Source: Patescibacteria group bacterium UBA6017
GTDB taxonomy: Bacteria; Patescibacteriota; Saccharimonadia; UBA4664
NCBI GenBank assembly: GCA_002429485.1
Contig: DIZX01000015.1
Location: 187,073 to 251,072 of the forward strand
Length of the DNA stretch: 64,000 nt
Reading direction: 5' to 3'
Shown here in pieces: positions 45,939-56,064 of this stretch; the stretch's first letter is position 1; each line of letters opens with the position of its first letter. The notes beneath the pieces were generated by a model that saw nothing but the letters and a program-made list of their open reading frames with translations, was not told the origin of the DNA and did no database searches. The position numbers and the translations under genes are program-made.

Positions 45939-46388
45939 TTAGTTGGCTTTGGATAAAGCATTAATCACGAACTGGACGAGGGCGAAGGATATCACCGCCA
46001 CCACTATACCGACAATGGCATAAAGGATTGTGTCTTTGGCGGCCGTAACGTTCTTGGAGTCACCGTTCGAGACCACGTAGCGCAAGCCGCCGATGATCAA
46101 GTAGATCACCGAGATAGCACCGACGAGGAAGATCAAGGTGTTGGCAATCACGGTGAAAATACCGCCCTGTCCGAACAAGTTATCCTTCTGGCTGCCACCC
46201 TGAGAGCATGAAGCGCCAGCGGTCAGCGGATCAGTAGCGTTGCCACTCGCGTCACAGTTTGATGCAGCTCCGAAGGCCGGGGAGGCCGAAATCATCACAC
46301 CCGCAACGGATGCGGATCCTACTCCCAGCACCAGGACGAGCGCCTGGAGCGAGAGCGCAACTTTCTTTAATAATCTCTCTATACCCAT
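45939..46388 (-). CDS. T4SS pilin-like protein, paralog 1 (VirB2/TrbC-like: signal peptide plus two C-terminal hydrophobic helices)
   Basis: N-terminal signal peptide, a Cys pair (NCDAS...ASCSQ), then IFLVGAISVIYLIIGGLRYVVSNGDSKNVTAAKDTILYAIVGIVVAVISFAL. It has its own promoter (TTGCTA-17-TAATGT at 46427-46455) and an AAGGAG RBS. Confidence 0.6.
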   Translation of the reverse strand: MGIERLLKKVALSLQALVLVLGVGSASVAGVMISASPAFGAASNCDASGNATDPLTAGASCSQGGSQKDNLFGQGGIFTVIANTLIFLVGAISVIYLIIGGLRYVVSNGDSKNVTAAKDTILYAIVGIVVAVISFALVQFVINALSKAN

Positions 46389-46456
46389 TAGAATCTAATC
46401 TCCTTAATAAAATTCAATTTGATGTGACATTAGCATAAGCGTTAACGACTAGCAAT

Positions 46457-46780
46457 CTACTTTCCTATAGTAGTCGTCACGAACTGCACTATCGCATACG
46501 CTACGATTGCTACGATTACACCTATGATAGCGTACATGATGGTGTCCTTGGCGGCCGTCACGTTCTTCGAATCACCGTTGGAGGTCACGTAACGCAACCC
46601 GCCGAGAATAATCATAATGACAGATAGGGCACCGATAAGTATCGTCAAAAAGTTGGCGACATTTGCAAAGATATGAGCCAAGCTCACATTGTTGCAATTA
46701 GCCCCACTCGCACAAGCCTGATTTGCTCCGGCCGTAATATTACTCGCTGCTGTTCCCAGTAAAACAACCAAACTACTCAT
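46457..46780 (-). CDS. T4SS pilin-like protein, paralog 2
   Basis: Signal peptide, Cys pair (CASGANC), and the shared core LGGLRYVTSNGDSKNVTAAKDTIMYAIIGVIVAIVAYAI. AGGAGA lies 6 nt before the ATG. Confidence 0.6.
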   Translation of the reverse strand: MSSLVVLLGTAASNITAGANQACASGANCNNVSLAHIFANVANFLTILIGALSVIMIILGGLRYVTSNGDSKNVTAAKDTIMYAIIGVIVAIVAYAIVQFVTTTIGK

Positions 46781-46800
46781 TTACATTCTCCTAAATTATG

Positions 46801-47106
46801 CTATTTCCCGAGCGCCGCAGCGATTCCGTCCACGATCGCGTAAGCCATGATCGCCAGTATCACCCCAGCAATTGCATATTGGAGCGAATCCCGCCCCTGC
46901 TGATACCGCTTGGCATCACCAGCCGATAAAGTGATTTGCAGCCCTCCTACAATCACGAATATTACCGCCAGCATGCCAATTATTATTATAAGCGTATGCG
47001 CAATACTTGCGAACCCCGTACTCAAATTTGTAGCGGAACTCGGGCAATTGTTGATCGTTTTGCACGAAATACCGTATAGCACCGCGACCAACCAACCGCC
47101 CATCAT
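46801..47106 (-). CDS. T4SS pilin-like protein, paralog 3
   Basis: Cys pair CKTINNC; core VGGLQITLSAGDAKRYQQGRDSLQYAIAGVILAIMAYAI. Its start abuts the stop of paralog 4. Confidence 0.55.
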   Translation of the reverse strand: MMGGWLVAVLYGISCKTINNCPSSATNLSTGFASIAHTLIIIIGMLAVIFVIVGGLQITLSAGDAKRYQQGRDSLQYAIAGVILAIMAYAIVDGIAAALGK

Positions 47107-47451
47107 CTAAAAGTTCCCCGAAATAAACGTAACTGCGGCATACGACATAATAATTAATATTAGGCCCGTTACCGTATTGATGAGGATTTCTTTCGCCCGT
47201 TTCACCCTGGACGGATCTCCTGTCGAGGTAATGTAGTAAATTGCCGCCACTAATATTGCAATGATCGCCAGCGAACCGGATATCGCAATCAAAATTCGCA
47301 TTATGTTCCCGATAATCTTTGCAACCTCTGTCAGTGAGGAAATCTGAATTTCATTCTTCGAATTACACAGGCCGTCGTAAAGACTCGGAAGCACCCCGTG
47401 CGTGGTACCGCAGTCCGCGGCGGCCATATGAAATAGCTGCAAAAAGATCAT
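47107..47451 (-). CDS. T4SS pilin-like protein, paralog 4
   Basis: Cys pair (ADCG...GLCNS); core IYYITSTGDPSRVKRAKEILINTVTGLILIIMSYAAV. Its start abuts the stop of paralog 5. Confidence 0.55.
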   Translation of the reverse strand: MIFLQLFHMAAADCGTTHGVLPSLYDGLCNSKNEIQISSLTEVAKIIGNIMRILIAISGSLAIIAILVAAIYYITSTGDPSRVKRAKEILINTVTGLILIIMSYAAVTFISGNF

Positions 47452-47928
47452 CTACAGCAACCCTCCGGGTACCAGGAAGTTCAAGATCGCCACCATCATC
47501 AAGTAGAGTACCAGCGCGGTAACGGCGTTCATTATTCGTCCCTTAGCGTTCTTCACGTTCGACGGATCGCCGCCCGAAACAATGTACTGAACACCCGCGA
47601 TCACCAGGACCAATATAATTATCCCGCCAATCAGGCTGTTTACCAGAAAAAGTATCTGCTTAAGGTAAAAAATGATTGCTCCGCCGGTCTTGGGATCGTT
47701 CGGAACCTCCACCTGACCCGACTTGCATGATCCCTGAGATCCACCGGCTGCGATCGGCAGCGCTAAACAGACCGGACCGCCGCCCCCGGTAATATCGGCC
47801 GGCGCCTTTGCTGCGGCGCCCACTTCAGCTGGCACCACATACGCTTGGCTACCCAAAACAACAACGTCCAGTGGCGCCGATACAACAGCCGCAAACGCAA
47901 CAAACAGGAATAAACTTAAGCGCTTCAT
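47452..47928 (-). CDS. T4SS pilin-like protein, paralog 5 (first gene of the pilin operon)
   Basis: Signal peptide, Cys pair (PVCLAL...GSCKSG); core VQYIVSGGDPSNVKNAKGRIMNAVTALVLYLMMVAIL. Confidence 0.55.
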   Translation of the reverse strand: MKRLSLFLFVAFAAVVSAPLDVVVLGSQAYVVPAEVGAAAKAPADITGGGGPVCLALPIAAGGSQGSCKSGQVEVPNDPKTGGAIIFYLKQILFLVNSLIGGIIILVLVIAGVQYIVSGGDPSNVKNAKGRIMNAVTALVLYLMMVAILNFLVPGGLL

Positions 47929-48044: not shown

Positions 48045-51000
48045 ATGAGACGTAGGTGGTTCGGAATATTCCTCATGGCGTGGGCGTTTATGTCCCCACT
48101 GTTTGCGTTCGCCCCGGCGGCAGAAGCCGCCCCGCCCTCCGAGTGCCACTGGACTGACCCAAACCACATCGTTTGTGATGGCACCAGCACCTACACCAAG
48201 ACTGCATTCCAAAATACAACCATCTACCGATCGGATATAAGCCACTTTATTGCAAATATCAACGCCGCCCATACGGCTGGAACATTCACCGAAATCACCC
48301 AATCGCCCCAGACGGCCAATACATACCCGATGGCGCTTGGCAGCCCGGCTAATGCCACAACTACACCCAAAAATCCGCCGTCTACCTCCCTTGCCTGCTC
48401 CTGGACAGACAAAACACTCATTCAGTGCGGCACCGAACAATTTAAATTTATTCATATAGCAGCGCAAAACCAAGATCGCTGGGTCAATAGTGCCACCAGC
48501 TTCATTGCCAACGTATCGGCCAACAAGACCGCCGCCACCCATTACACCATGCTTCAATCGGGATTGCCCGGACCTACCAATCCGGTCACCCTTAGCAATC
48601 CGGCCAACGCCACCAAAAACCCAGCTGCTCCTGGCGGAGGTCCAACCGCCGATAAACCCGTCAACTGTGAAGCAGGCGCCTTCACTTGGCTCGTCTGCGG
48701 CAGCATCAAAATCCTCGTCGGTGTCGTCGACACCATTACTAACGATGTTATCGTTCCGTTCCTCAAAGAACCCCCGCTCGACAAAAACCAAAAAGAATTT
48801 GCCCCAGTCTATGCCATCTGGTCAGCATTTCGAAACGTTGCCAGCGTCTTCTTCATCCTCGTCTTCTTCCTGGTGATTATCGGCACCGCCCTCGGCTTCG
48901 ACAACTACACCATTAAGAAGGTTCTCCCGCACCTGGTAGCAGGCGCCATTTTGATGCCGTTCTCGTGGTATCTATGTGCCTTTTTGGTCGATATCGGCAA
49001 TGTGCTTGGCCAAGGCATCGTCGTACTCATGACTAATATTATTATTATCGGCACGCCCAAAGTAGATCTCACCTCGAATTTCACCACCTTATTCCTCGGT
49101 GTCGGCGGGGGAGTAGGCACTTTCGCATTAATCGGTGCCGCAACCATCCTGGGGTTCTGCGCCATAATCTCGCTGCTAATTGCCTTCGCCGGCGTATTTC
49201 TGACCCTGGTATTCCGCAAAATATTAATTCTGTTTCTGATCATCATCAGCCCGTTTGCCCTCCTGGCCTGGGTCCTGCCCAACACCGAGAAGTGGTTCAA
49301 AGAATGGTGGCAAAACTTCCTCAAGCTCGTTATGCTCTATCCCATCATCATGATGCTGATCGAGGTTGGCCGTCTGTTCTCCGCCACTGCCACCGCCGCC
49401 TCCCCCGGCGCCATCTGTGCCGCCGGCGATACGGCCTGTCAGGCGACAGCCTGGGTAGCACCATTCTTCGCCATCGCCGGACTCACCGTCCCGCTCTTTA
49501 TCATCCCGTTTGCCTTCAAGTTTGCCGGCAAGGGTCTCGCGGCGGGCAGCGGCGCCATCAACAAGCTTGGCGGCGGCATCGACAAGAAATACGGAAAGGA
49601 CAGCGCCCTCGCCAAGGACCTCGCCGAAGGGCGCCAGCGCAAGAATGTGGCAGCTGCCAAGATTGCCGAAAGCAACGCCAAGAGCGCTCATGGCCTTCAC
49701 AAGACCGCCCTGAACCGCAAAGCCGCCATGAACTGGCGCCGAGCCGGGTTGGCGGGCAGTACCGGCAGCGCCAAGCTGAGGCGCGGTGAGGCCGTCGGCA
49801 AAGCTGATAAAGAATTAAGTACGATTGATGCCGATAACCGTATGTCCAAAGAAGCAGATCCGGAAGACTTCCGGCAGCGCCGCCTCTCCACCACGCAGAG
49901 CATCCTCGACGAGAAGGCTGCCAACCGCGGTGCCCGCCAAGGTGTATTAGAAGGTTACAATGGCGCGGGCGCTCCAGGCGCACGAGACAAGCAGCACCAG
50001 GCTCGCATCAACTCCCGCGACAATTATCTGGCTGCAGCCGGAAAAGCCAAGGGCGAGATCGAAGACGACGCTCTCAACGAACGCGAACGAGTCAATCGCA
50101 CCGGCAATTACGTCAGCCCATCCATGAAAATGGCCGCCGCTCACGATACAGCCGCCCTTTCGGCCTCGGATGCTCGCGGAACAGCCAGAGGCATCGTTGA
50201 GGGCGGGGCTGAGGCTGAGCGTATCATTCAAAGTCAAACCGGCTTAAACGCCGCTGATGCCCGCGATCTTCGGCTCCGTAATGTAGCTAAAGCCAAAAGC
50301 AACATCCAAAGCGCTTCGGCAGTCACGACCCAACAAACTGCTAACACCAATGTAACCGCCAATGCCGAGCTCGATCGCCAGCAGATCGCAGCCGCCGGCG
50401 GCCATATGTCCCCCCAGCAAGCCCGCAGTCTACGTATGCAGAACCTATCCGCCGCCACTCACTCTCAAGAGCGTGAAAAGATTGGTGCCGCCGAAGGTCA
50501 GATCGATGCCCGAAATGCCATCACCGCCTCCGCCGGCCAGGAAAACATGGGCCGCCTGGTAACTGGTGAGCGGATGGCCGCCCGCGAGCAGCTCTCCAGC
50601 GCCCGGACCTTGCGCGAAGCCCGCGCCGACTTCCAAGCCACTCCCGAAGGCTATATGTCGACCGCTGACTCACTCAAGGCCAGCCGTTTGGAAGCCAACA
50701 AGCGTATAGGTGCCAGCATAGGCGCCCAAAAACAAGAGATCGCCCAGGAGCAGGAAGATATCGCCAAAGCCCTGCGCGACGGTAACCCTGCCCCCAGACT
50801 GGCCGACCACGTAATCGCCGGCACCGAAGCCGCCAAATCTAAGACCGCTCAAGACTCCGCCCAGCGCCTGGCCGCCGTCAACGCCGTCCGTACCGGCACC
50901 GCTGCCAGCACCAGACAGCACACCGACGCCGCCGTCTATACGGCCGAGCGCAGCACCGCCATCGCCGACGCCGCCGTCAAAGCCACCGCCAGCGCCGTTA

Positions 51001-52586
51001 ACGCCCAAATCGCCGCCGTTGCCGGGGAGAAGGGCTTATCTACAGCCGCCGCCGCCCAAGCCGTCCGCACCGATAATCTCAAAGTCGCTGCGCGCGCCAA
51101 AGAAATAACTACGAACGCAGAATTTGCTACTACTCCCGCAAAAGACAGAGGCGTCATCAAGGCGTATGAAGCCGCCATCGAACAGGCCCGAGAAGCCCCC
51201 CTCCGAAAAGCCAAGGTAGCAGCCTTTGAGCGTGCCGATGAAAATGCCCGCACCGACACCTATGAACAGTCCTATCAAATCGCAAAAGCCGCCAAAATGA
51301 CGGACAAGGCAGGCAAGATCGTGAAAGACGCCGCAGGCAACGAGGTTCTCAAGTTCACCGAAGGCGAAGCCCGAGACTATGCCGCAAAAGCCAGAGATAC
51401 GCTCGGCGCCGAAAGGGGCCAAAAAGCTGGTCGCGAGGCAGCCGACAAAATCACAGCCGTAGGCAAGTTGAATTCCGCAGATGCCGAACGAGCCGTGATC
51501 GCATCCTCCGCAACAGCCGCAGAAGAATTAGCCATGCGCACAGAAGCCTCCTCGCAAGCCCAAACTGCCGCCCTCAATCAGGCCGTTGAATCGTCTGCCA
51601 CAAAACTCGATGCTAGAGAGCGCCTAGCCGTCCAGACCGAAGGTTCCGTTGCAACACTAGCTGCCGAATCTGGAGCCGCCAGAGCCCGCTACGACCTTAC
51701 TCGTCCCGGACAATCGTTAAACCAATCCTATCAAGCTGCCGAAGACCACGTAGTAAAGTCCGAACGGCTAAAAATAATAGGTGATCGCGTCGAAAAAGCC
51801 GGCAATGAAGACTTTACCTTTATGGGCAAAGACGGAGTGCCACACTCCGACAGTGTCAAAAACGCCGACTTAGGCCCAGACGGCGTCAAAGCCCAGGACG
51901 ATGAAATCAGGAGGTTGCTCAAAGATGGTTACCAAGACCCCGAAAACGAAGATCGCGCCCTCGCGCTCGTAGGCAGACTGTCGTTAACGGGCAGCGGCAG
52001 AGAAAGAGTTCGCGCAATTCAACGTGACCTATTTGGAAGAACTGAAGACCAATTGATCGATCCCACCAGATTTAAGGGCCGGGCCAGTGAGCTCTGGGAG
52101 ATCGTGCAGTCAAAAAACAAATCTGATGTATCCAAGGACTTCTTCATGCCCGAACCTGCCGCCTATGACGGCTACAGCTCATCCGAGTTTGGTCGCTCTG
52201 GTTGGGGAGAAAAGAAAAATTACTTCGAATTCGCCAAAAGAGTAGACAAAGATAATATTTACGACGAATCTACTCGAAATATCCAACAAGCCCTAACCAA
52301 CGCTCAAGTTACAAAGGAACTGAATTCCGATGACTACGCTCAAATGTGGATCTATATGCAAGACCCCAAGGCCCTAACTGCTCTGGCCACACGAGACACA
52401 GACGCAGGGAAAGGCAAAACAGGCCTCGACATCGTAAAGAAGATATATGCGTCAGGTGGCGCGGCTGAAGCCGAAAAGAGATGGTTAGAAAAACAAGGCG
52501 GCGACCCAAGCAGGAATATTCTCAAACAATACGCAGATTCTGGCTTCACTGTTTTACCGCCAGTGCCACCCCCTCCGACCCCCTAG
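48045..52586 (+). CDS. VirB6/TrbL-like T4SS inner-membrane protein with an N-terminal Cys-pair repeat domain and an about 1000-aa Ala/Lys/Glu-rich C-terminal extension
   Basis: 1513 aa. It has a signal peptide; three C-x9-C motifs (CHWTDPNHIVCDG, CSWTDKTLIQCGT, CEAGAFTWLVCGS); a polytopic core of about 8 TM helices between residues 230 and 500; then a low-complexity Ala-rich helical tail. Confidence 0.7.
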   Translation: MRRRWFGIFLMAWAFMSPLFAFAPAAEAAPPSECHWTDPNHIVCDGTSTYTKTAFQNTTIYRSDISHFIANINAAHTAGTFTEITQSPQTANTYPMALGSPANATTTPKNPPSTSLACSWTDKTLIQCGTEQFKFIHIAAQNQDRWVNSATSFIANVSANKTAATHYTMLQSGLPGPTNPVTLSNPANATKNPAAPGGGPTADKPVNCEAGAFTWLVCGSIKILVGVVDTITNDVIVPFLKEPPLDKNQKEFAPVYAIWSAFRNVASVFFILVFFLVIIGTALGFDNYTIKKVLPHLVAGAILMPFSWYLCAFLVDIGNVLGQGIVVLMTNIIIIGTPKVDLTSNFTTLFLGVGGGVGTFALIGAATILGFCAIISLLIAFAGVFLTLVFRKILILFLIIISPFALLAWVLPNTEKWFKEWWQNFLKLVMLYPIIMMLIEVGRLFSATATAASPGAICAAGDTACQATAWVAPFFAIAGLTVPLFIIPFAFKFAGKGLAAGSGAINKLGGGIDKKYGKDSALAKDLAEGRQRKNVAAAKIAESNAKSAHGLHKTALNRKAAMNWRRAGLAGSTGSAKLRRGEAVGKADKELSTIDADNRMSKEADPEDFRQRRLSTTQSILDEKAANRGARQGVLEGYNGAGAPGARDKQHQARINSRDNYLAAAGKAKGEIEDDALNERERVNRTGNYVSPSMKMAAAHDTAALSASDARGTARGIVEGGAEAERIIQSQTGLNAADARDLRLRNVAKAKSNIQSASAVTTQQTANTNVTANAELDRQQIAAAGGHMSPQQARSLRMQNLSAATHSQEREKIGAAEGQIDARNAITASAGQENMGRLVTGERMAAREQLSSARTLREARADFQATPEGYMSTADSLKASRLEANKRIGASIGAQKQEIAQEQEDIAKALRDGNPAPRLADHVIAGTEAAKSKTAQDSAQRLAAVNAVRTGTAASTRQHTDAAVYTAERSTAIADAAVKATASAVNAQIAAVAGEKGLSTAAAAQAVRTDNLKVAARAKEITTNAEFATTPAKDRGVIKAYEAAIEQAREAPLRKAKVAAFERADENARTDTYEQSYQIAKAAKMTDKAGKIVKDAAGNEVLKFTEGEARDYAAKARDTLGAERGQKAGREAADKITAVGKLNSADAERAVIASSATAAEELAMRTEASSQAQTAALNQAVESSATKLDARERLAVQTEGSVATLAAESGAARARYDLTRPGQSLNQSYQAAEDHVVKSERLKIIGDRVEKAGNEDFTFMGKDGVPHSDSVKNADLGPDGVKAQDDEIRRLLKDGYQDPENEDRALALVGRLSLTGSGRERVRAIQRDLFGRTEDQLIDPTRFKGRASELWEIVQSKNKSDVSKDFFMPEPAAYDGYSSSEFGRSGWGEKKNYFEFAKRVDKDNIYDESTRNIQQALTNAQVTKELNSDDYAQMWIYMQDPKALTALATRDTDAGKGKTGLDIVKKIYASGGAAEAEKRWLEKQGGDPSRNILKQYADSGFTVLPPVPPPPTP

Positions 52587-52659: not shown

Positions 52660-53469
52660 ATGGGCCAGTATAAGGTGCCGCAAAACGTAGAGGCCGAGGA
52701 CAAGATTCTTGGCCCGTTAACTTTCAAGGAGTTTATCTACTTCTTGATGGGTTTTGGTTGGGCCGCGCTGAGCTTTGCCATCTTCCGTCAAATTCCCGTC
52801 CTCATGGTCGTCATCGGCTTTCCGCCCACCACGCTATTGCTGCTGCTGGCCTTCTACAACCGCGACGGCCAAAGCTTTGAGCAGCTCCTGGTAGCCATGG
52901 TGGGTTTCTTTGCCACCTCCCGCCGCCGCGCCTGGTCCAAAGATGACATCATCGAAACCTTCCACGTGGAGGCCACCGTCATCGCCGCCGAGGCCACCCA
53001 GCGCAATTCGGCCGAAGTCCGCGGTGAGCTCGAAAAACTCGCCAACCTCATCGATTCCCGCGGCTGGAACCACCCCCAGGAGCCCGAACCCTCACAGATC
53101 ATGCCATCTATCGCCCACACCGACCGCATCGTGCCCACGCCGCCGCCAACCCCCGGTGAAGTACCCACCGATATCCTCGACCTGCAGCAAAGTCCGCTGG
53201 CCCAAAACCTTGCCGAGCTACTACGCGCGGCAGCCGAAGACGTTCGCGAAGAGGCTATCCAGCAAATGGCCGGCAAGCCAGTCCGGCCCGTAAAAGGCGC
53301 TCCAGCCCCCACAAGCATAAGCGGCGTGACAGCCGCGTCGCCGAACGATATACTTCAATTAGCAACGCAGAGTGATGAGTTAAGTGTGACGCAGATTGCC
53401 GCCCAGGCCACCCGCCGGGTTGCGCTGCCAAACGGACAAACCTTGGAGATTCCCGTCAATGGCAGCTAA
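52660..53469 (+). CDS. PrgI-family (VirB3-like) T4SS membrane protein
   Basis: N-terminus KVPQNVEAEDKILGPLTFKEFIYFLMGFGWAALSFAIF matches the PrgI-family pattern (VPKDI..YEEK..GLT.RQ), followed by two TM helices. It overlaps the next gene by 11 nt. Confidence 0.65.
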   Translation: MGQYKVPQNVEAEDKILGPLTFKEFIYFLMGFGWAALSFAIFRQIPVLMVVIGFPPTTLLLLLAFYNRDGQSFEQLLVAMVGFFATSRRRAWSKDDIIETFHVEATVIAAEATQRNSAEVRGELEKLANLIDSRGWNHPQEPEPSQIMPSIAHTDRIVPTPPPTPGEVPTDILDLQQSPLAQNLAELLRAAAEDVREEAIQQMAGKPVRPVKGAPAPTSISGVTAASPNDILQLATQSDELSVTQIAAQATRRVALPNGQTLEIPVNGS

Positions 53470-54193
53470 CGCCAATACACATTCCGGTAAAAGCGCCCAA
53501 GATACCCTCCTGATCGCCGAGATCAAGGATGGCATCGTGGTCATGAAAGATGGCTCCCTCCGAGGCGTTATTCTCAGCAGCGCCATCAACTTCGACCTCA
53601 TGAGTCCCAGCGAGCAAGAGGCCGTCGAATCAGCCTATCAGGGCTTCCTCAACTCGCTGCATTTCCCCGTACAAATCTCCATTAAGAGCCAAAAAATCGA
53701 TATCACCGGCTACCTCGAGAAGCTCGATGCGCTCCGTGCTGAGCAACCCAATGAGCTCCTTGGCGTCCTGATGGACGACTACATCGCCAACATTCGCGCC
53801 CTCGTGGAAGAGGTCAATATTATGGACAAGCAGTTCTACGTGGTCATCCCGTATTTCCCCCCGTCCGCCGTTCAAAAAAGCAACAGCCTGATCGATAAGC
53901 TCAAAGGCGCCTTTGAATCCACCCCGATGATTACCGTCAGCGAGGAAGATTTCAAGAAGAACAAAACCGAGCTCTCGCAAAGAATGGCTCTGGCCGCCAA
54001 CGGCATGACCCAAATGGGCGTCCGCGCCATCTCGCTCGGCACCCAAGAGTTGGTTGACCTTTACTATTCCTGGTACAACCCCGACGTCGCCGTCAACCAA
54101 AAACTCATCGACACCTCACAGCTCGGCACGCCAGCCGTCACCAAGGGAGTCGGCTCCGCGCCGCGCGGCCCGCTACCGGGAGCACCACTGTAA
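53459..54193 (+). CDS. VirB4 N-terminal domain protein (split VirB4, part 1)
   Basis: IAEIKDGIVVMKDGSLRGVILSSAINFDLMSPSEQEAVESAYQGFLNSLHFPVQISIKSQKID is a typical VirB4/TraE N-domain. It ends at TAATG, which overlaps the next ATG. Confidence 0.7.
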   Translation: MAANANTHSGKSAQDTLLIAEIKDGIVVMKDGSLRGVILSSAINFDLMSPSEQEAVESAYQGFLNSLHFPVQISIKSQKIDITGYLEKLDALRAEQPNELLGVLMDDYIANIRALVEEVNIMDKQFYVVIPYFPPSAVQKSNSLIDKLKGAFESTPMITVSEEDFKKNKTELSQRMALAANGMTQMGVRAISLGTQELVDLYYSWYNPDVAVNQKLIDTSQLGTPAVTKGVGSAPRGPLPGAPL

Positions 54194-56064
54194 TGGGACT
54201 ATTTGGGAAAAAACCTGCTGCCACCGTCGACCAAGCTCAACTCGAACAGATGCAAAAATCGATGGAGTCTCGCGAAGCTGAGCTCATTTACCGTCAAGGT
54301 ATCGTCACCATGCGCGACCTCATCGCGCCGCCCTCAATCGAGGTGGAATCGGCCTATCTTCGCCTTGGCAAGCGCTACTGCAAGACTATCTATGTTTATG
54401 GCTACCCCCGCCAAGTTTTCACGGGCTGGTTATCGCCCATTATTAACCTCGACGAACTCGTCGATCTCTCGCTCTTTATCTACCCAGTCGAGAGCCAAGT
54501 GGTACTCACCAACCTCCGCCGCAAAATGGGCCAGCTCGAGGCCAGCTACAGTATCAACCAAGAAAAAGGCCTCGTTCGCGACCCTGGCCTAGAGGCCGCC
54601 ATTCAAGATGCCGAAGAACTCCGCGACAAGCTGCAAGTAGGGGAGGAGCGCTTCTTCCGTTTTGGACTTTACCTCACCATGTACGCTGACACGCTGGACA
54701 ACCTCAACCAAACCACGCGCAAGATTGAAGGTATCTTCGGTCAGTCACTGGTCTATACCAAACCCACCACTATGCAGATGGAACAGGGCTTCAACTCCAC
54801 CACCCCGCTCGGAACCGATCAGATGCAGATCAGCCGCAACATGAACACCGGCGCGCTCTCCACGAGCTTCCCCTTTACCTCCTCCGAACTCTCCCGCAAT
54901 GAAGGCATCCTTTATGGCCTCAACCGGCACAACAACGGCCTGGTACTCTTCGACCGGTTCAGCCTCGAAAACGCCAACATGGTGGTGTTCGCCAAGTCCG
55001 GCGCCGGTAAATCCTTCGCCATCAAGCTGGAGGCCCTGCGTAGCCTCATGATGGGCGTCGAATGCATCATTATTGACCCGGAAGACGAGTACAAGCCCCT
55101 CTGTGAGGCCGTCGGTGGAACCTACCTGCGCCTCAGCCTGGCCTCCAAGACTCGCATCAATCCCTTCGACCTTCCGCGCGTGTTCGACCAAGACGAGGCC
55201 GATAACGCTCTGCAGGCCAACATCATCTCGCTCCACGGCCTCCTGCGCCTCATGATGGGCGGCGCCACCGTCAATACCTCTACCGGCGCCACGCTGTCCT
55301 CGCCGCTTTCACCCGGCGAAGAAGCCGATCTGGATGCCGCCATCATCAACACCTACGCCCGCGCCGGCATCACCCGCGACCCGCTCACCCACAGCGCCAC
55401 CCCGCCCACCATGAACGACCTCTACAACACCCTCGCCTCCATGACCGGCACCGGCCCCGGCCTCGCCCAGCGCCTCCGCCAGTACACCACTGGCACCTTC
55501 TCTGGCATCTTCTCCGAACAATCCAACGTTGAGCTCGACAACCCCTTCCTGGTCTTCAACATCCGCGATCTCGAAGACGCCCTCCGCCCCGTCGGCATGT
55601 ACATTGTCCTCAACTACATCTGGAATAAAGTTAAATCCGACCGCCGCAAGCGCCTGCTCATTATTGACGAGGCCTGGCAGCTCATGAAGTACGACGATTC
55701 TGCCAACTTCATGTTCTCGCTCGCCAAACGCGCCCGCAAATACTACCTCGGCCTCACCACCATCTCGCAGGACGTCGAAGACTTCCTCGGCAGCAAGATG
55801 GGCCGCGCCGTGGTGGCCAACTCCTCCCTCCAGCTGCTGCTCAAGCAGGCCCCCAGCGCCACCGACATCATCGCCGAAACTTTCAAGCTCACCCAAGAAG
55901 AAAAGAACCGCCTCAGCCAATTCCCGGTGGGCGAGGGCCTATTCTTTGCCGGCCTCAACCATGTCATCATCCGCATCTTAGCGTCCGATACCGAGACCCA
56001 GCTCATATCAACTAATCCCGGCGGTACCAAAACCCCTCCGCCGACCGGAGGTGAGGCTCAATAA
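54193..56064 (+). CDS. VirB4-family T4SS ATPase (CagE/TrbE/VirB domain; split VirB4, part 2)
   Basis: Walker A VVFAKSGAGKSF, Walker B LLIIDEAWQLM, and the central motif YVYGYPRQVFTGWLSPII...DLSLFIYPV. Confidence 0.9.
   Translation: MGLFGKKPAATVDQAQLEQMQKSMESREAELIYRQGIVTMRDLIAPPSIEVESAYLRLGKRYCKTIYVYGYPRQVFTGWLSPIINLDELVDLSLFIYPVESQVVLTNLRRKMGQLEASYSINQEKGLVRDPGLEAAIQDAEELRDKLQVGEERFFRFGLYLTMYADTLDNLNQTTRKIEGIFGQSLVYTKPTTMQMEQGFNSTTPLGTDQMQISRNMNTGALSTSFPFTSSELSRNEGILYGLNRHNNGLVLFDRFSLENANMVVFAKSGAGKSFAIKLEALRSLMMGVECIIIDPEDEYKPLCEAVGGTYLRLSLASKTRINPFDLPRVFDQDEADNALQANIISLHGLLRLMMGGATVNTSTGATLSSPLSPGEEADLDAAIINTYARAGITRDPLTHSATPPTMNDLYNTLASMTGTGPGLAQRLRQYTTGTFSGIFSEQSNVELDNPFLVFNIRDLEDALRPVGMYIVLNYIWNKVKSDRRKRLLIIDEAWQLMKYDDSANFMFSLAKRARKYYLGLTTISQDVEDFLGSKMGRAVVANSSLQLLLKQAPSATDIIAETFKLTQEEKNRLSQFPVGEGLFFAGLNHVIIRILASDTETQLISTNPGGTKTPPPTGGEAQ

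Follow-up and report, generated by a model that had tools for sequence, protein, structure and literature searches.

The window, a 64,000-nucleotide stretch of a Saccharimonadia (Saccharibacteria/TM7) chromosome, contains an origin-proximal type IV secretion system (T4SS) of the sort found in ultrasmall Saccharibacteria. One of its genes, flanked immediately by five VirB2-like pilin genes on one side and a PrgI(VirB3)–TraC-like–VirB4 series on the other, encodes a protein of 1513 aa with a very long tail (Table 1). This raises the question of what the protein is, whether its tail is genuine and normal for its kind, and on which side of the membrane the tail lies. The gene order (pilins, VirB6-like, PrgI, TraC-like, VirB4, hydrolase) is the same in ortholog loci.

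Table 1. Features of the T4SS locus and of the VirB6-like gene, in window coordinates.
Feature	Residues	Position	Strand	Basis
Five divergent VirB2-like T4SS pilin genes, one Cys pair each		45939..47928	-	Pfam PF18895 in all five
Extended VirB6-like (TrbL_3) gene, complete, 1513 aa		48045..52586, stop codon included	+	ORF list, translation
Predicted Sec signal peptide (MRRRW..., AEA/A)	1–28	48045..48128	+	Read from sequence
Ectodomain module copy 1, opens with C34-x9-C44	34–111	48144..48377	+	BLASTP, module HMM
Ectodomain module copy 2, opens with C118-x9-C128	118–196	48396..48632	+	BLASTP, module HMM
VirB6/TrbL_3-like polytopic core	~205–515	48657..49589	+	Hydropathy, family conservation, AF2, Pfam
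Invariant Cys pair C208...C218 (CEAGAFTWLVC), outer end of TM1	208–218	48666..48698	+	Family alignment
Ala-rich helical spacer (predicted)	516–1220	49590..51704	+	Composition, ortholog comparison, helix propensity
Cryptic diverged ~54-aa repeats in spacer		50244..50624	+	hhalign self-comparison
Family-specific all-alpha C-terminal domain (predicted)	1221–1499	51705..52541	+	AF2, profile search
Pro-rich C-terminus (GFTVLPPVPPPPTP)		52542..52583	+	Sequence
PrgI/VirB3-like		52660..53469	+	Pfam PrgI
TraC-like ORF, likely true start 53459		53396..54193	+	Gene order and PF26593 TraC-like in ortholog loci
VirB4 ATPase		54193..56064	+	Pfam TraG P-loop/AAA_10

The 1513-aa protein described in the initial annotation is encoded by a single ORF with an ATG start. 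Homologs share the N-terminus from M1, which makes M1 a better start than the M11 of database entries. The source is metagenome-derived, the composition of the tail is biased and some database matches to the C-terminal domain are short proteins that lack the core, as might be expected if the long ORF were an assembly chimera, a product of collapsed or expanded repeats, or neighboring genes fused through sequencing error. However, no tandem or direct DNA repeats were found in the gene, and self-BLAST of the tail gave no significant match. The identical protein (P0121, a 1503-aa product in the database) was found on three contigs, among them one of 96 kb from JGI and others of 0.2–1 Mb, and variants that differ at 1–2 aa with exactly equal length occur on further contigs, so that several independent assemblies contain the 1513-aa protein. 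The ortholog P0002 (76% identity) aligns collinearly across residues 203–1504 in two independent sources; dN/dS against this ortholog is 0.05–0.21 along the length of the tail, which is under purifying selection throughout. The order of core, spacer and C-terminal domain is also common to 51 relatives. An artefact is effectively refuted, and both the ORF and its long tail are genuine.

The proposed VirB6/TrbL-like core was likewise borne out. Hydropathy delimits a polytopic hydrophobic region at residues ~210–495, for which a simple count gives 8 or 9 helices; the core is kept in all 120 homologs and is modeled by AF2 at pLDDT 80–95. Precomputed Pfam matches assign PF19590 (TrbL_3) to P0121 and P0002 (E ≤ 1e-5), and PF04610 (TrbL) is the commonest Pfam match in the family (19 of 37 members at E ≤ 1, the best at 2.8e-5). 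When the 1513-aa protein was run through hmmscan against a local Pfam, TrbL was sub-threshold (E = 0.32–0.44) and PF19590 was not listed. The top match of the family profile in the PDB was TrwI/VirB6 of R388 (E = 0.016), and a Foldseek search of the PDB with the AF2 core returned TrwI/VirB6 chains in the top seven positions (probability up to 0.97), followed by DotA, with matches to TrwI that are weak in measure (TM ~0.3, E ~0.007). These low Foldseek values, the sub-threshold direct TrbL matches and the inconsistent names of homologs ("oligosaccharide repeat unit polymerase", "ABC transporter permease") would also fit some other polytopic membrane protein placed in the locus. We consider this highly improbable, as PF19590, the modal Pfam family and the top matches by profile and by fold all indicate TrbL/VirB6 and no alternative is indicated, and the place beside VirB3 and VirB4 is conserved. 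Profiles and models together argue that the gene product is very probably a polytopic T4SS membrane subunit of the VirB6 (TrbL_3) family.

In front of the core, a signal peptide and two repeats of ~110 aa had been described, each repeat opening with C-x9-C. The signal peptide stands as a prediction: MRRRW, a hydrophobic stretch and AEA/A are Sec-signal-like by eye, and this N-terminus is kept in homologs P0016, P0023–25, P0029, P0030 and P0040. The repeats are true ones (39% identity over 80 aa, E = 3e-12, in BLASTP of the two halves; module HMM match at residues 29–110, E = 5e-20), but the unit is ~84 aa from Cys to Cys. Each comprises a beta-rich module of ~80 aa, and the two copies lie in tandem. 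The third C-x9-C motif seen before the core is present at 208/218, in addition to those at 34/44 and 118/128, but it is not a third copy of the module. It is an unrelated, separate element, and both of its Cys are invariant in 37 of 37 aligned family members, with a spacing that appears to vary from ~9 to 12 in the sequences inspected by eye. Between one and three modules are present in each of 13 further members of the family, for the most part lacking the Cys pair, and the Cys-stapled pair of modules is limited to this lineage and a small number of others. The N-terminal region of P0002 is unrelated, although that protein is 76% identical elsewhere. Close orthologs have thus exchanged their N-terminal ectodomains.

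Ectodomain Cys are paired, and of 121 family ectodomains, 112 have an even number. The five pilins have exactly one Cys pair each. The module had been said to mirror these pairs, but the pilin spacings are 13, 14, 5, 5 and 15 instead of 9. A disulfide element common to ectodomain and pilins is conceivable only in a broad sense, paired Cys being a trait of the exported parts of this system.

The last two thirds of the protein had been regarded as low-complexity and Ala-rich. Residues 516–1220 are indeed rich in Ala (22.8%) and contain no Cys, but low complexity of a repeat type is absent, and Ala falls to 6–12% in the last ~290 residues. Depending on the boundary chosen, the spacer is ~705–726 aa long (residues 516–1220, or 726 aa from the last TM helix). 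Crude propensity scores for residues 560–1130 suggest that it is helical, and no heptad periodicity was found in the tail, contrary to what a coiled coil would call for. Its proximal part, from 516 to ~900, is kept in ~20 homologs. Diverged repeats with A-R-x-L-R-x-x-N motifs near residues 739, 793 and 848 were detected by hhalign self-comparison (off-diagonal score 55, E = 2.7e-6, 295 columns; column-shuffled controls ≤ 14.6), while ungapped autocorrelation of the spacer was marginal (z = 3.2 at lag 54).

The spacer leads to a domain of ~280 aa that AF2 predicts confidently as a separate all-alpha unit (pLDDT 82–94). The beta-hairpin that AF2 suggests at residues 34–44 of the ectodomain is of low confidence. 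A profile of the C-terminal domain searched against 1.84 billion representatives matched 61 proteins. All of these in which a core is detectable belong to this family and have the domain near the C-terminus, and the others are shorter sequences; homologs of lower rank, such as P0117 from TM7i, lie beyond the reach of the profile. In the PDB, the domain had no significant relative, and the weak matches were alpha-solenoid proteins. The domain, solenoid-like by these matches, appears confined to this family. P0002 and P0025 likewise end in PPPPTP, and several other members have Pro-rich ends.

The combination of N-terminal repeats and tail had been thought distinctive, but the tail plan is family-wide. 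Tail length runs from 285 to 2047 aa among more than 120 homologs from Saccharimonadia, and in the 51 relatives with the same plan the spacers range from 102 to 1465 aa (14-fold), which places this protein mid-range. The long tail is a normal feature of the family, consisting of a helical spacer of variable length and a conserved end domain. In the published example, SEML1_0013 of Southlakia epibionticum ML1, TrbL/VirB6, a helical hairpin and an ARM-like part were reported (Wang et al, 2023; PMC10633639). Compared by description, this annotation (TrbL/VirB6, CesA-like helical hairpin, ARM-repeat-like C-terminal part) matches the core–spacer–solenoid plan, although the Southlakia tail is shorter, with annotated domains ending at 1085. 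Both loci are chromosomal, come from the same phylum, combine a pilin array with PrgI/VirB3 and VirB4, and are without an obvious relaxase.

Other known systems share some of these features. TrwI/VirB6 of R388 (PDB 7o3v, 8rt9, 8rtd) and TrbL (PF04610) are likewise polytopic helical proteins encoded with VirB3 and VirB4, and TrwI also works with VirB2-type pilins. However, the likeness to TrwI is slight (E ~0.01, TM ~0.3); TrwI has only 342 aa and lacks both a tail and an ectodomain led by a signal peptide, and in contrast to R388 the present system belongs to a monoderm host and has no VirB5 partner. VirB6-3 and VirB6-4 of Anaplasma phagocytophilum also combine a VirB6 core with very large hydrophilic extensions, alongside arrays of pilin paralogs and in a reduced-genome, host-dependent bacterium (PMC7648143). 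Their extensions are built up of extensive tandem DNA repeats with strain-to-strain variation, whereas the tail described here lacks DNA repeats and keeps its length and its sequence between orthologs, and Rickettsiales have 4–5 tandem VirB6 paralogs instead of one copy. VirB6-like proteins of Gram-positive MPF_FA systems (700–900 aa) belong to monoderm T4SSs and add C-terminal regions to the core (PMC12857230); these are described as unstructured, whereas tails in the present family reach ~2000 aa and have a confidently folded end domain. TraG of the F plasmid and SXT ICEs has a VirB6-like N-terminal membrane domain and a large hydrophilic C-terminal domain (cited in PMC7648143), which is periplasmic and serves mating-pair stabilization and entry exclusion in diderms. 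Neither in sequence nor in fold did the C-terminal domain described here show similarity to TraG.

Given the very probable VirB6 identity of the core, the location of the tail can be considered. From predicted topology we favor, with some reserve, a cytoplasmic tail with a docking role. Past the last TM helix, the first 60 residues contain 13 K/R against 5 D/E, in line with the positive-inside rule, and a YGKDSxxAK motif is conserved; a Cys458/Cys465 pair in the loop before the last helix fits an out-to-in orientation of that helix. The solenoid-like C-terminal domain, of a kind typical of intracellular scaffolds, and the ECOD "ARM repeat" assignment of the Southlakia homolog would also favor the cytoplasm. 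Alternatively, the tail of this VirB6-like subunit could be extracytoplasmic, forming a surface stalk or fiber on a VirB6 oligomer or being cleaved and delivered to a host, and would then act as an adhesin or effector with a reach set by spacer length. Tails of the family have 3 Cys in 81,439 residues, compared with 0.57% in the cytoplasmic proteins of the window. Such a scarcity is unusual for a cytoplasmic domain, would be just as compatible with a segment that is exported or translocated, and recalls proteins that pass unfolded through a channel. Most of R388 VirB6 lies outside the membrane (review PMC12857230), surface exposure has been reported for the C-terminal extensions of VirB6-3 and VirB6-4 in Anaplasma, with release into the host proposed (PMC7648143), spacer length varies between lineages as in surface fibers, and eight helices with an outside N-terminus would put the C-terminus outside. 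On the other hand, the clearly exported parts all carry paired Cys and the tail has none, the heptad signal needed by a fiber is missing, and the tail evolves slowly whereas the true ectodomain is swapped. An extracytoplasmic tail thus seems unlikely to us, though less remote than a non-VirB6 core.

We read the protein as a member of a known VirB6-like family, in which its long tail is not unique. The core would oligomerize in the manner of VirB6 in R388 and, with the downstream VirB3- and VirB4-like proteins, form a membrane platform for pilin assembly and substrate passage. The exported ectodomain would be a swappable surface cassette. Since it lacks homology between orthologs with 76% identity in the rest of the protein, its probable contacts are the cell wall, the pilus or the host. 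The tail would most likely stay cytoplasmic as a flexible tether that offers its C-terminal domain as a docking site, for example to substrates or ATPases. Published work has identified Saccharibacterial VirB6 as essential, and the homologous Southlakia epibionticum system is essential for epibiotic growth (PMC10633639; Quinonero-Coronel et al, 2025, PMC12102498).

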